A stretch of DNA of 64,000 nt from an uncultured Acidobacteriota bacterium (GCA_963764505.1 CAVXSP010000001.1:1880608-1944607), one strand, 5' to 3'; counted from the first letter of the stretch, positions 27,668-62,933 are shown. The notes: generated by a model not told the origin, from the letters alone. Numbers and translations are program-made.

Positions 27668-27695
27668 GAAGCCCAGAGCCCAAAGCCCAATGCCT
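27668..27695. repeat. Heptamer tandem array, 4 units (GAAGCCC AGAGCCC AAAGCCC AATGCCT).
   Basis: Read directly from the sequence. The array fills the 30-nt spacer between the tesA-like stop (27667) and the ABC ATPase ATG (27698). Confidence 0.85.
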
Positions 27696-27697
27696 CG

Positions 27698-28357
27698 ATG
27701 ATTGAGCTCTTCGACGTCTCGCGCACCGTGACGAGCGGGGCCGCCCCCCTGACGATTCTTCATCCGACGAGCCTGCGGATCGAGCGCGGAAGCGCCGTCG
27801 CGATCACCGGCCCGTCAGGAAGCGGCAAGTCGACGCTGCTCGGTCTGATGGCGGGTCTCGACGCGCCGACGACCGGACGCATTCTGCTGGACGGTGTGGA
27901 CATCACCGCGTTGGGTGAAGATGCCCTCGCCCGGCTGCGCGGCGAGCGGATCGGGATCGTGTTCCAGTTCTTTCATCTGATTCCGACGCTCACGGCGCTC
28001 GAGAACGTGCTCGTGCCGATGGAGATCGCCGGCGCGCCCCACCCCGCCCGTCGCGCCCGCCAGCTCATTGCCGAGGTCGGGCTCGTCGATCGGGCGGGCC
28101 ACTATCCCTCGCAGCTGTCAGGCGGCGAACAGCAGCGCGTGGCGATCGCGCGGGCGCTCGCCAACGAGCCGCCGATTCTGCTGGCCGACGAGCCGACCGG
28201 CAATCTCGACACCACGACGGGCGCCCAGATCATCGACCTGCTGGTGTCGATCAACCGCGACCGCGGACGGACCCTCGTGCTGGTCACTCACGATCGGGAC
28301 CTTGCCGACCGTGCCGACCGCGCGATTGCGCTGCGGGATGGGCGGGTGGTCGGATGA
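27698..28357 (+). CDS. ABC transporter ATP-binding protein (YbbA/LolD-like).
   Basis: It has Walker [10 protein letters not shown], the signature [15 protein letters not shown], and Walker [13 protein letters not shown]. Confidence 0.9.
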   Translation: MIELFDVSRTVTSGAAPLTILHPTSLRIERGSAVAITGPSGSGKSTLLGLMAGLDAPTTGRILLDGVDITALGEDALARLRGERIGIVFQFFHLIPTLTALENVLVPMEIAGAPHPARRARQLIAEVGLVDRAGHYPSQLSGGEQQRVAIARALANEPPILLADEPTGNLDTTTGAQIIDLLVSINRDRGRTLVLVTHDRDLADRADRAIALRDGRVVG

Positions 28358-30906
28358 CGTTCGCCCTCCGCATGGCCTTCCGGGAGCTCCGCGCTTCATG
28401 GGCGCGCCTGTTGTTCTTCTTCCTCTGCGTGGCGGTCGGCGTCGCGGCCATCGTCGTGCTGCGCAGCGTCATGCAGCAGGTGCGGGCCGTGCTGACGCAC
28501 GAGGCGCGGGACCTGGTCGGCGCCGACGTCGTGCTCAGGTCGACCCGGCCCTGGACGCCGGAGGAGCGCACCCGGATCCAGCACGCCATCGGTCCGGCCG
28601 GCGCCCCGGAGGCCGACCTCATCGAGACCCAGACGATGGCCGGGCGCCTGGAGAACGGGGAGGTGACCGCGGCGCGGCTGGTCGAGCTCCGGGGTGTCGA
28701 CGCCGGGTTCCCGTTCTACGGCACCCTGGAACTGGCCGATGGCCGCGCCTACGCCCACGACCTGCTCGTCGGCCGCGGCGCCCTGGTACAGCCCGAGATC
28801 CTGGCGCAGTTCGGCGCTTCCGTGGGCGATCAGCTCCGCCTCGGAGGCCAGGCGTTCACGATCCGCGGCGTCGTCTCGCGCGACCGCGTCCAGCGGTCCG
28901 GCGGATTGGCGTTCGGCCCGCGCGTGTACGTCGACCTCGACGACCTCGAGGGGCTGCCGATCCTCGGGTTCGGCGGCCGGGCCAGCTATCAGATTCTGCT
29001 GCGCGTGGAGGCCGGGACGATCGACGCGCTGACGCGCCGCCTCCGGCGCCTCTTCCGGGAGGATTTCGTCAGTGTGCAATCGTGGCGCGGCGTCGAGGAT
29101 CGCCTCGGCCGGAATCTGACGCTTGCCGAGAACTATCTCAGCCTCGTGGGGTTTGCCATCGTCGTGCTCGGCGGCATCGGGGTCTGGAGCGTCACGCGCG
29201 TGTTCGTGCAGCAGAAGGTCCGGAGCGTGGCCGTCCTGAAGTGCCTTGGGGCGTCCTCGCGCCTCGTGCTCTCGACCTACGTCCTGCAGGTGGGGTGGCT
29301 GGCGGCCTGCGGCAGCGTCGCCGGCGTCGGCCTGGGCGCCGTCGGGCTTCATTCGATCCCGGCCAGGCTGCTGACTCCGCTCAGCCTCACCGCGGTCGGC
29401 GTCACCTGGTCGGCGGCCACGCAGGGGATCGCGGTCGGCGTGCTCGTCTCGCTGCTGTTCGCCCTCGTGCCCCTGCTCGAGATGCGGCGGGTGAAGCCAC
29501 TGTTGCTCCTCCGGGCCGACACGGCGGACGCGGCACGGGCGCGCGACTGGCAGAGCGTGCTGGCCGCCGCCGGGATGGCTGGCGCGCTCGTGCTCGTCGC
29601 CATCTGGCAGGCGGACTCGGTGCGCGCCGGCGTGTACGTCTCGGTGGGACTGGCGGGCGTCGGGCTGGCGCTGCTCGGGGGCAGCGCCCTGCTCGTGCGC
29701 CTCGCGCGGCCGCTGACGCGATCCCGGCGATTCGCCGTCCGCCACGCCACCATCAGCCTGGGCCGGCCGGGCAACCAGACGCGGGTCGTCCTCGTGGCGG
29801 TGGGCCTCGGCTGCTTCTTCCTGCTCTGGATGCGGGCGCTTCAGGGCAACCTCCTCGCGGAGTTCGGGGGCCAGCTCAGCCGCGACGCGCCCGACCTCGT
29901 GCTGATCGACATCCAGCCCGACCAGCTCGAGGGCGTGCGGGCGGCCGTGGCGCCGTACGTCACGCAGCCGCCGAACACCTGGCCGATGATGCGGGCGCGG
30001 GTAGTGGGAATCGATGGGCGGCGCGTGCACCTGCCGGACCCCGCCGCCGTCCGGAGGCAGGGTCGCCTCACGCGCGAGTTCGGCGTCACCTATCGTGACG
30101 CGCTGCAGGGGAACGAAGAGCTTACGGCGGGGCGGTTCTGGACGGAGCCGATTCGATCGGCACACCTGCCCGACGGGACCGACACGGAAGTCTCGATCGA
30201 GGAGCAGGTACACTCGCGCGCCGACGTCGATCTGGGCGATCTCATGCGGTTCGACGTGGGGGGTGTCGTCATTCGTGCGCGCGTCACGTCGGTGCGGAAG
30301 GTGAGCTGGGACGAGGCGCAGAACGGCGGGTTCGTGTTCGTGCTTCGGCCCGGACCGGCCGTCGATCGGGCCCCGCAGACCTTCGTGGGCTTTCTGAAGG
30401 TGCCGCCCGGGCCGGAAGCGGCGGGCGCGCTCCAGCGCGAGCTCGTGCGGGCGTTTCCGAACGTCTCCGCCATCGACGTCCGCGAGCTGCTGGCCTCGAT
30501 CAAGGAGGTGGTGGACAATGCGACGCTCGGGATCACGATCGTGGGTGGCGTGACCCTCTTCAGCGGACTGCTGATCCTCGTCGGCGCCGTTGCGGTGACC
30601 AAGTTCCAGCGGCTGTACGAGGCCGCGATCTACCGGACGCTGGGCGCCAGCACCCGTGTGCTGGCATCGATGACGGCGATCGAGTACGGGCTGCTCGGCG
30701 CGCTCGCGGGCCTGCTCGGCGCCGCCGGGGCGCTCGGACTCTCGTGGCTGGTCGTGACCCGCCTCTTCGAAATCGAATGGCATCCGACGCCGGGACTGCT
30801 CGCGGGCGGCGTGGTGCTGGCGGCGCTCCTCGTCTCGCTCGTGGGTGTGCTGTCGAGCGCCGACGTGCTCGTCAAGAAGCCCCTGAGCACGCTGCGGGGA
30901 GAGTGA
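28354..30906 (+). CDS. FtsX-domain ABC permease, duplicated 10-TM type (YbbP-like).
   Basis: The protein is 850 aa with two FtsX-like 4-TM modules. Its start overlaps the ATPase stop (ATGA). Confidence 0.8.
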   Translation: MTFALRMAFRELRASWARLLFFFLCVAVGVAAIVVLRSVMQQVRAVLTHEARDLVGADVVLRSTRPWTPEERTRIQHAIGPAGAPEADLIETQTMAGRLENGEVTAARLVELRGVDAGFPFYGTLELADGRAYAHDLLVGRGALVQPEILAQFGASVGDQLRLGGQAFTIRGVVSRDRVQRSGGLAFGPRVYVDLDDLEGLPILGFGGRASYQILLRVEAGTIDALTRRLRRLFREDFVSVQSWRGVEDRLGRNLTLAENYLSLVGFAIVVLGGIGVWSVTRVFVQQKVRSVAVLKCLGASSRLVLSTYVLQVGWLAACGSVAGVGLGAVGLHSIPARLLTPLSLTAVGVTWSAATQGIAVGVLVSLLFALVPLLEMRRVKPLLLLRADTADAARARDWQSVLAAAGMAGALVLVAIWQADSVRAGVYVSVGLAGVGLALLGGSALLVRLARPLTRSRRFAVRHATISLGRPGNQTRVVLVAVGLGCFFLLWMRALQGNLLAEFGGQLSRDAPDLVLIDIQPDQLEGVRAAVAPYVTQPPNTWPMMRARVVGIDGRRVHLPDPAAVRRQGRLTREFGVTYRDALQGNEELTAGRFWTEPIRSAHLPDGTDTEVSIEEQVHSRADVDLGDLMRFDVGGVVIRARVTSVRKVSWDEAQNGGFVFVLRPGPAVDRAPQTFVGFLKVPPGPEAAGALQRELVRAFPNVSAIDVRELLASIKEVVDNATLGITIVGGVTLFSGLLILVGAVAVTKFQRLYEAAIYRTLGASTRVLASMTAIEYGLLGALAGLLGAAGALGLSWLVVTRLFEIEWHPTPGLLAGGVVLAALLVSLVGVLSSADVLVKKPLSTLRGE

Positions 30907-30925
30907 AAGGAGGCGGGCCCGGAGA

Positions 30926-30934
30926 TGCTAGAAT
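30926..30934 (+). promoter_or_regulatory. Candidate extended -10 element (TGCTAGAAT) upstream of the DksA-family gene.
   Basis: The sequence TGCTAGAAT lies 41 nt before the ATG at 30975. The same 9-mer occurs upstream of the ECF sigma gene. Confidence 0.4.
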
Positions 30935-30974
30935 CTTCTGTTGAGCCGGCCCTGCCAGGGCCGGCCGAACGCCG

Positions 30975-62410: not shown

Positions 62411-62445
62411 CTTCAAACTTCGAAGTTCGAAGTTCGAACTGCGAA
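62411..62445. repeat. Heptamer tandem array, 5 units (CTTCAAA CTTCGAA GTTCGAA GTTCGAA CTGCGAA) in the groES-groEL spacer.
   Basis: Read directly from the sequence. The units contain the self-complementary TTCGAA core. Confidence 0.9.
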
Positions 62446-62446
62446 G

Positions 62447-62737
62447 CTACTTTTCGATGACGCCGAGCACTTCCTCTTCGCGCATGATGAGGTACTCGCT
62501 GCCGTCAATCTTGATCTCCTGGCCGGCGTACTTGCCGAACAGGACGGTGTCTCCGGCCTTCACGTCGAGCGGCGTGATCTTGCCGTCCTTCTCGACGCGG
62601 CCCTTGCCCGCAGCGATGATCTTGCCCTGCTGCGGCTTCTCCTTCGCCGTGTCCGGAATGATGATGCCGCCCACGCGCTGTTCCGTTTCCTCGATCCGTT
62701 CGACGATGACTCGATCGTGCAGTGGTCTGACTTTCAT
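62447..62737 (-). CDS. groES: Co-chaperonin GroES (Cpn10).
   Basis: The sequence [44 protein letters not shown] is canonical GroES. The ATG at 62737 is preceded by AGGAGAGAGGA. Confidence 0.95.
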
Positions 62738-62760
62738 GACTGTCCTCTCTCCTTGATGGG

Positions 62761-62782
62761 TCCGGGGCGCTTCGCCCCGCGG
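62761..62782. repeat. Second copy of the GC-rich hairpin element, in the groES leader.
   Basis: See 19397-19419. Confidence 0.7.
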
Positions 62783-62898
62783 CTCGCTCCAACGCGGGGC
62801 CGCAACGCCCGCTCCACTCCCTCGCGCCGCCCGGCGCCCCGGCCGCCTCGCTCCGTGCGCGCGGCTCACCGCTGCGCTCGTTCGCGCCCTCTCAAGTT

Positions 62899-62933
62899 CT
62901 GGCTTCTGGCCTCGAGCTTCTGGCTTCGAGCGG
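62899..62933. repeat. Heptamer array, about 5 units (CTGGCTT CTGGCCT CGAGCTT CTGGCTT CGAGCGG), within the groES 5' leader.
   Basis: Read directly from the sequence. In the transcript orientation it reads as AAGCCAG-type units. Confidence 0.8.

Follow-up and report, generated by a model that had tools for sequence, protein, structure and literature searches.

The short tandemly repeated repetitive (STRR) sequences of cyanobacteria, known since 1990, are heptanucleotide tandem arrays of unknown function, of which several families per genome are dispersed in non-coding DNA. Arrays of the heptamer GGGAATC were described in Xanthomonas, with about 185 arrays per genome, 89-93% of them intergenic and located on average 28 nt from the upstream open reading frame (ORF) (Rehm et al. 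2015, PMC4692102). They included 70-75 inverted pairs, occurred at 16% convergent vs. 8% divergent sites, showed no strand preference and were associated with groES, among other genes; the same genes flanked them in two species, with differing length and sequence, and no function was found (PMC4692102). TAACTGA direct repeats were reported from marine Beggiatoaceae, Cyanobacteria and Bacteroidetes (MacGregor 2015, PMC4679880), and heptamer arrays from promoters of Nostoc (bioRxiv 10.1101/2022.06.06.494920). An excess of heptamer simple sequence repeats (SSRs) in many bacteria, as well as the idea that period 7 is linked to a polymerase footprint, go back to Mrazek 2007, as quoted in PMC4692102 and PMC4679880. 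Here, eight period-7 arrays were analyzed in a stretch of 64,000 nt (the window) from an uncultured Acidobacteriota bacterium (GCA_963764505.1, CAVXSP010000001.1:1880608-1944607). No description of heptamer arrays in Acidobacteria was found in a literature search and, since both the excess and arrays in other bacteria have been published, only the taxon is new: the window is a new host for a known phenomenon, and its arrays are not a new kind of element. An initial annotation of the window, which knew such arrays from heterocystous cyanobacteria, was too narrow as regards other hosts, which include Xanthomonas, Nostoc, Beggiatoaceae and Geobacter (PMC4692102, PMC4679880, PMC2700814).

Window arrays were called with Tandem Repeats Finder (TRF), and all periods were scanned with a uniform cut-off (score ≥11), taking expectations from a second-order Markov model. 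All eight arrays listed in the initial annotation were recovered; they lie in untranslated spacers or in an ORF tail and, as it had stated, none falls inside a conserved coding core. The eight are located within 27.6-63 kb of the window, and no period-7 array was detected in 1-27 kb. At score ≥11, period 7 was represented by 4 arrays vs. 0.2 ± 0.4 expected and periods 4, 5, 8, 10, 11 and 13 by none, and arrays of periods 6, 9 and 12 were intragenic, except for one period-12 array (9627-9652) that lay outside genes according to the gene calls. A tandem 7-nt unit was therefore over-represented compared with the other non-triplet unit lengths, as in the heptanucleotide SSR excess of prokaryotes. 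Moreover, the pattern RAAGCCMRAAGCCM at ≤1 mismatch gave 14 matches in the window, at exactly the five GAAGCCM sites named in the initial annotation, vs. 0.10 expected, and AATTGTMAATTG gave 4 matches (45268 on the minus strand, 45305, 45312 and 59325) vs. 0.03 expected. The AATTGTA sites are weak arrays, with 2+2 units arranged as an inverted repeat at 45266/45305 and 4-5 degenerate units at 59325. A scan of the window against Rfam 15 gave 0 matches at the gathering score, and a tRNA scan gave no match. GC-rich repeats of periods 9, 12, 15, 21 and 33 at 32763-32837, 41210-41291 and 40143-40181 are intragenic, correspond to coding low-complexity Pro/Ala-rich stretches and are unrelated to the heptamer arrays.

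The same excess was observed beyond the window. When one genome per species was scanned for AAGCCMRAAGCCMRAAGCC, at least 119 loci were returned; among the matches listed, at least 33 came from Acidobacteriota, in which they covered at least four classes, and the others were scattered over many phyla. Acidobacteriota probably account for only a few percent of the species in the scanned collection; with this share, the matches listed look like a roughly ten-fold enrichment of the phylum. The 33 Acidobacteriota loci (231 kb, among the matches listed) contained 41 further period-7 arrays, a count that omits those matching the search pattern, and 11 period-14 arrays, with many different units, and periods 4, 5, 6, 8, 10, 11 and 13 were represented by 0-2 arrays each. 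Because these loci had been picked for a heptamer array, the count was repeated on loci picked without regard to repeats, namely 80 metagenome loci (388 kb) picked by GroEL similarity only. This sample yielded 16 period-7 arrays at score ≥11, with 0-2 for each of the other non-triplet periods. Period 7 was thus approximately 10-fold commoner than periods 6 or 8, both in the window and in the 388 kb of relatives. The initial annotation had been prepared to give up its proposal if period-7 arrays were no commoner than those of periods 6 or 8 and not enriched at gene boundaries, which is not what was found at the scale reached.

The arrays had a median of 4.4 units and a G+C content on average 6 points below that of their own locus. 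They were concentrated in intergenic regions, as in the described heptanucleotide SSR excess: 21 of 22 and 72 of 81 arrays were non-coding, where non-coding bases made up 25% and 21%, respectively (approximate gene calls). The median distance was 59.5 nt from an array to a stop codon (37% within 25 nt) and 97 nt to a start codon (20% within 25 nt), and array density was highest in convergent spacers (1.27 per kb), followed by co-directional (0.74) and divergent ones (0.40). Among neighbouring arrays within 250 nt, 12 of 23 pairs were reverse-complement partners and 2 were direct, and close convergent pairs were thus frequent, as among the Xanthomonas and Nostoc arrays; the inverted pairs of the window are 60626/60727 and 45264/45303. 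Distant arrays of the same locus shared their unit in 10 of 21 pairs (48%), vs. 24 of 595 (4%) between loci (Fisher p = 1.5e-8), which indicates that each genome keeps a few unit families.

Two candidate explanations were discarded at this level. An RNA-sense motif was considered, as all five GAAGCCM arrays of the window lie in sense orientation with respect to the local transcript, yet no strand bias was present across acidobacterial loci (13 sense, 12 antisense). A hairpin-nucleated origin was rejected as well, since array flanks showed no excess of stable hairpins (mean -9.5 kcal/mol vs. -11.0 in random intergenic windows). The association with terminators proposed in the initial annotation did not hold for the same reason, and is no more than would be expected of any 3' spacer.

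The comparative behaviour of the spacer between groEL and a convergent tonB-like gene is the part of most interest. In the window this spacer measures 138 nt and carries two arrays. A perfect (AGAAGCC)x5.9 array (60626..60666, plus strand, 100% match in TRF) follows directly after the TGA of the tonB-like gene, and a degenerate array (AAGCCAG AAGCCAA AGGCCAC AAGCCAG, 4.1 copies; 60727..60755, minus strand) lies in the groEL 3' untranslated region (UTR), its end 8 nt from the groEL stop codon. In the comparison with relatives below, the groEL-side unit is AAGCCAG and the tonB-side unit CTTCTGG. Between them stands a terminator hairpin, CGGCCCGAYTGGC-N4-GCCARTCGGGCCG (60682..60711), with the U-tract TTTTCTCTT in the groEL direction, whose alignment columns are invariant. 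The region 60615-60775 is predicted to form a single hairpin of approximately 55 bp (-96.7 and -100.8 kcal/mol for the two strands, z = -10.8 and -10.4), in which the terminator forms the tip and the two arrays, with arms 90% complementary, the lower stem. Only the tip hairpin together with TTTTCTCTT has the features of an intrinsic (Rho-independent) terminator, so that the arrays are its flanks and not the terminator itself; a simple consensus terminator scan did not list this tip hairpin.

Syntenic relatives were fetched via GroEL and comprised L203 (95% identity), L204 (94%), L205 and L206 (93%), and L208 and L209 (92%). The same tip hairpin is kept in L203, L204, L205 and L208, and the arrays begin at conserved offsets on both sides, with different units. 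In L204, GAACTTC on the groEL side faces GAAGTTC on the tonB side, and the spacer is again predicted to fold as a long hairpin (-80.4 kcal/mol, z = -12.8), with 43 pairs outside the tip. In L203, the units ACTTCGA (groEL side) and CCTGATG (tonB side) are not complementary and the outer arms are left unpaired. L205 and L208, which lack the convergent tonB gene, have the groEL-side array only, with six units each in a mix of GAAGTCA, GAAGTTC and GAAGCCA and with parallel changes in units 21 nt apart, as expected for homogenisation driven by slippage. Orthologous groEL 3' arrays hold approximately 5-6 units as the unit drifts between GAAGTTC, GAAGTCA and GAAGCCA; judging from these alignments, the site appears to hold an ancient array that evolves in situ as its units are homogenised. 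The occurrence of all three units within one orthologous array links the STTCGAA and GAAGCCM types, and the three sequence types of the initial annotation, each of them seen in the window, may therefore overstate the diversity. When covariation of the long hairpin was analyzed column by column, only the 16 conserved tip pairs coincided, as the arms pair in shifted registers. A further locus, L202 (4001-6733, from the sister sample ERZ25039536), carries AAGTAAG-type heptamers before the terminator and ACCTACG x2 after it in its groEL 3' spacer; its groEL was called as a 910-aa product and the neighbouring genes look truncated, which suggests frameshift errors in this long-read assembly.

Whole arrays differ between relatives in the groES region. 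The groES-groEL spacer measures 54 nt in the window, where it is filled by a GAACTTC/GAAGTTT array (62409..62445, minus strand; TRF unit AACTTCG, 5.3 copies) that may form a 12-14-bp hairpin (z = -3.9) and appears terminator-like in the terminator scan; in five relatives it measures 11-33 nt and has no array. The groES 5' leader contains a further array (GAAGCCA GAAGCTC GAGGCCA GAAGCCA, 4.4 copies, period 7/14; 62897..62931, minus strand), downstream of the groES promoter and of both CIRCE-like (controlling inverted repeat of chaperone expression) repeats (62945-62993), and no such array was found in the leaders of L203, L204, L205 and L208. Both arrays are thus present in the window lineage only, with units already present nearby. 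The promoter reads TTGACA-18-TATGAT (63023-62994, minus strand) and precedes a pair of adjoining CIRCE-like inverted repeats (62967-62993 and 62945-62969) that is kept in the same four relatives. Upstream of this promoter, the spacers of the relatives contain tandem 7-mers, 8-mers along with an inverted copy, five 9-mers (GTACCCGAC) and approximately 22-nt units (L203 537-569; L204 3455-3520; L205 about 3085-3135; L208 about 3470-3540), none of which occur in the window. Periods of 7, 8, 9 and approximately 22 at this site indicate that unconstrained spacers collect tandem repeats in general.

At the scale of close strains, the arrays were stable. The window is 99.89% identical to contig_3448 (1.99 Mb) of ENA ERZ25039539; over 11.5 kb the two differ by one 1-nt indel and 12 substitutions, of which two fall inside arrays (62433 and 62925). 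Copy number did not change in any array between the window and this contig, between L205 and L206 (99.96% identity) and between L208 and L209 (98.6%), that is, for few arrays in three strain pairs. Phase-variable contingency SSRs, in contrast, vary in copy number between close strains and shift a reading frame or promoter spacing. The arrays, which are located neither in ORFs nor in the -35/-10 spacer, are not contingency loci of a fast kind. Among named GroEL proteins, the closest ones (91-93% identity) belong to Vicinamibacterales (Acidobacteriota), and on this similarity the source of the window is a Vicinamibacterales genome.

The reading we favour, with evenly balanced confidence, is that the arrays are heptanucleotide SSR families of the kind known as cyanobacterial STRRs and Xanthomonas GGGAATC repeats, here in Vicinamibacterales. 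Replication slippage would grow, shrink and homogenise them in steps of 7, 14 or 21 nt and, because 7 is not a multiple of 3, they would persist only in untranslated spacers, where they are found filling the room from a stop codon to the next functional signal. New and reverse-complement arrays would be seeded by short templated copying, for instance by ectopic conversion or by template switching at hairpins; such copying would explain both the few recurrent unit families per genome and the many inverted pairs. Arms flanking an intrinsic terminator between convergent genes would then turn the whole spacer into one hairpin of roughly 55 bp, and any effect of this structure on termination, on insulation from convergent transcription or on mRNA 3'-end stability would probably be secondary. 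The initial annotation had preferred a functional or self-propagating element over random slippage. The arrays are indeed not independent slippage events, as shown by unit sharing (10 of 21 vs. 24 of 595) and by the ratio of inverted to direct pairs (12 vs. 2), yet they bear no sign of a mobile element, the loops being unconserved and the flanks having nothing in common.

Several observations weigh against this account. Pure slippage explains neither the presence of GAAGCCM at five separate sites in 35 kb nor, among the matches listed, the recurrence of this family across four Acidobacteriota classes, and the arrays specific to the window lineage carry units already present nearby, for which copying or selection is needed. 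The absence of copy-number changes in strain pairs 0.04%, 0.1% and 1.4% apart implies that slippage is not fast. The length of the groEL 3' array is conserved, and in two of three relatives the arms are complementary even though their units differ, both of which could reflect selection for structure. Finally, slippage leaves the preference for 7 over 6 or 8 unexplained.

A selected structural element is an unlikely alternative. According to it, a long hairpin around the terminator, of RNA or of DNA, would be useful in itself, by insulating convergent genes, stopping read-through, offering an RNase III site or protecting mRNA 3' ends, and single arrays would serve as 3' UTR spacers or landing pads. 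The predicted fold of the window spacer (-97 to -101 kcal/mol, z about -10.5), the recurrence of its architecture with a different unit in L204, the conservation of the terminator tip and the constant unit number at the orthologous groEL 3' site all argue for it. Arrays were also more frequent in groEL 3' UTRs than in other 3' regions (11/62 vs. 12/200, p = 0.008), an enrichment that drops to p = 0.13 at a stricter cut-off. In L203, however, complementarity of the arms is lost (ACTTCGA vs. CCTGATG) and the tip is still kept, most arrays have no partner, and transcripts ending at the tip hairpin would never include the second arm. Moreover, template switching can hold arms complementary without selection, and the shifted registers prevent a column-by-column scoring of covariation.

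In a more far-reaching proposal, the arrays would be more than passive microsatellites. They would belong to a self-renewing, Acidobacteriota-wide repeat system in which genome-specific units are template-copied behind stop codons, and in which the arms around a conserved bidirectional terminator are actively kept complementary as their sequence is replaced (GAAGCCA here, GAACTTC in the relative with 94% GroEL identity). We consider it rather unlikely; if true, it would imply either that a hairpin of roughly 55 bp is under selection or that a dedicated activity, for copying or for binding, works in steps of seven.

It is quite improbable that the arrays are binding sites for a trans-acting factor, each unit being one site for a protein that reads single- or double-stranded nucleic acid in 7-nt steps, with the unit families tracking the specificity of the factor. 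Such factors have been proposed before (PMC4679880, bioRxiv 10.1101/2022.06.06.494920), in the form of cold-shock/S1-type OB folds in the case of the TAACTGA repeats (PMC4679880). Genome-specific families do recur at separate sites, the RAAGCCM family was found in four acidobacterial classes (at least 33 of at least 119 scan loci) while single sites turn over, and the common sense orientation of the five GAAGCCM arrays in the window would fit such a factor. The random orientation across acidobacterial loci speaks against it, as do the coexistence of many unrelated units in one genome and the free drift of units at an orthologous site; no candidate protein was identified, and the cited literature reports none for any organism.

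A self-propagating miniature foldback element, by which array-loop-array blocks would be inserted into spacers by an unknown enzyme, is highly improbable. Frequent inverted pairs, the presence or absence of whole arrays between relatives (groES-groEL spacer and groES leader) and the occurrence of one unit at several nearby sites would be expected from it, yet many arrays are single and the loops between arms share no sequence. Neither conserved ends or core nor a target-site duplication was seen between copies in one genome, where loops and flanks differ, which separates the arrays from miniature inverted-repeat transposable elements (MITEs) and foldback elements and makes this the least likely of the three alternatives of hairpin selection, a 7-nt binding factor and foldback insertion. 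At the groEL-tonB spacer, an old and conserved terminator forms the central hairpin, and the offsets at which the arrays begin on both sides are also conserved, so the arms appear to have evolved in place and not to have arrived with the hairpin. A chance origin, or unspecific microsatellite noise that does not favour period 7, has only the small size of the window to speak for it and is refuted at the scale tested by the 4 arrays vs. 0.2 expected with none at neighbouring periods and by the same pattern in 388 kb of independently chosen loci, and the presence of arrays in independent ENA, JGI and NCBI assemblies excludes an assembly artefact.

The remaining arrays of the window were located relative to genes by our own dynamic-programming calls (approximate), by the database gene calls of the matching contig, which agree, and by Pfam. 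The first (GAAGCCC AGAGCCC AAAGCCC AATGCC, 3.7 copies; 27668..27694, plus strand; TRF 27669-27694 with unit AAGCCCA, and the RAAGCCMRAAGCCM pattern) fills a 30-nt spacer, directly after the TAG stop codon (27665-27667) of a GDSL-lipase gene and with a 4-nt gap between its end and the ATG (27698) of an ABC-ATPase gene; no stable fold was predicted for it (z = -0.9). The second is a RAAGCCC-type array of approximately 7-9 units with a 7/14/21 higher-order period (32272..32339, plus strand; TRF and RAAGCCMRAAGCCM pattern). It forms the C-terminal tail of the HPPK (folK) ORF (31829-32338) and is read through, the site at 32288 corresponding to the last 20 codons or so. The HPPK Pfam domain stops at residue 133 of 169 and the array lies beyond it; in this frame the GAAGCCC-type array is free of stop codons, which lengthens the ORF by approximately 20-35 residues. 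Array tails such as this one could inflate ORF calls in these genomes. On the minus strand, 18 nt from the array, a predicted terminator hairpin (ccggcgggagaggtctcccgccgg followed by TTTTCTCTT; 32357..32384, from sequence and fold) serves the convergent gene 32434-32931, and an exact-protein look-up of this 165-aa neighbour of the 32.3-kb array returned no record.

An inverted AATTGTN pair (TACAATT x2 ... AATTGTC AATTGTA; 45264..45324, AATTGTMAATTG pattern), with no strand assigned, is predicted to form a hairpin of approximately 20 bp (-25 kcal/mol, z = -3.1) within an 82-nt spacer upstream of ispH (Pfam LytB), between a stop codon and the ispH start. The degenerate array AATTGTA AATTGCC AACCGCA AATTGTA AGTGTCA (59325..59355, plus strand, AATTGTMAATTG pattern) lies between selB and tatA, which converge, abuts the stop codon of tatA and has a weak predicted fold (z = -1.9); only the source contig was returned by the exact-protein look-up of TatA. 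A motif 'AAGAGAAAAC' beside two of the arrays was discarded, being merely the reverse complement of terminator U-tracts. In the tonB-like gene (59774-60625), the window has an extra G at 60390 with respect to contig_3448, which frameshifts the 283-aa TonB_C gene and leaves only a 126-aa ORF (60245-60625).

With these data, an abundant and mostly uncultured soil phylum joins the hosts of heptamer repeats, a cross-phylum bacterial feature that has lacked an established function or mechanism since the STRRs and the general excess of 2007. The groEL-tonB spacer, where flanking units are swapped between close relatives around a conserved terminator yet stay complementary, could separate slippage, templated copying and selection, and the arrays could serve as strain markers, like STRR-PCR (polymerase chain reaction) in cyanobacteria.

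The systems compared include the repetitive extragenic palindromes (REPs), imperfect but conserved palindromes that measure roughly 20-40 nt and are associated with RAYT transposases. These repeats of Proteobacteria, with the bacterial interspersed mosaic elements (BIMEs) and the REP doublets forming hairpins (REPINs), resemble the window arrays as short extragenic hairpin-forming repeats in 3' UTRs and between convergent genes; here, in contrast, sites have only the short unit and its 7-nt period in common, and no conserved palindromic unit was seen. The GGACCGG and MTYCTGA repeats of Geobacter metallireducens are likewise multicopy, with 4-5 tandem heptamers, some of which were depicted as strand-switching (hairpin-like) sites, with an annotation as putative regulatory elements (PMC2700814). 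GGACCGG differs in that it is found within genes as well as between them and has a fixed copy number (four), in a paper without comparative data on turnover (PMC2700814). The TAACTGA repeats share with the arrays described here their intergenic location, direct heptamer repetition in 2-6 copies, scattered distribution over phyla and mixture with other heptamers in some genomes (PMC4679880). They lie mostly a few nucleotides upstream of start codons, with one indirect repeat (PMC4679880), whereas 3' ends and inverted pairs are favoured here; in addition, TAACTGA carries stop codons and GAAGCCM does not. Relative to the STRRs of heterocystous cyanobacteria, which are defined by cyanobacterial sequences, the window arrays belong to a different phylum and have different units, and are thus analogues, not members.

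The differences from Xanthomonas GGGAATC and Nostoc GGGGAYT (PMC4692102) concern the host, an acidobacterium here, the presence of several unrelated unit families per genome, and G-tracts. The units GAAGCCA, GAACTTC and AATTGTA have no G3 on either strand and form no G-quadruplex, and only the AAAGCCC subtype reads GGGCTTT on the opposite strand. A G3-4 tract per unit over at least 4 units is therefore lacking in the window arrays, with the exception of 32272-32339, which reads GGGCTTY on the minus strand and has 4-5 GGG tracts. Other Acidobacteriota contain long arrays with 7-14 units of the types (GGGCTTT)n and (GGGCTTC)n (L096 6158-6210, L098 1944-2045, L078 7795-7885), in a G3-N4 spacing for which the ability to form G-quadruplexes was shown in Xanthomonas by Rehm et al. 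In all other respects compared, the likeness to the Xanthomonas and Nostoc arrays (PMC4692102) is close: tandem 7-nt units in approximately 4 copies (median 4.4 here), about 90% intergenic and near the end of the upstream ORF, with many reverse-complement pairs, convergent sites favoured over divergent ones, no strand preference and involvement of the groES region.

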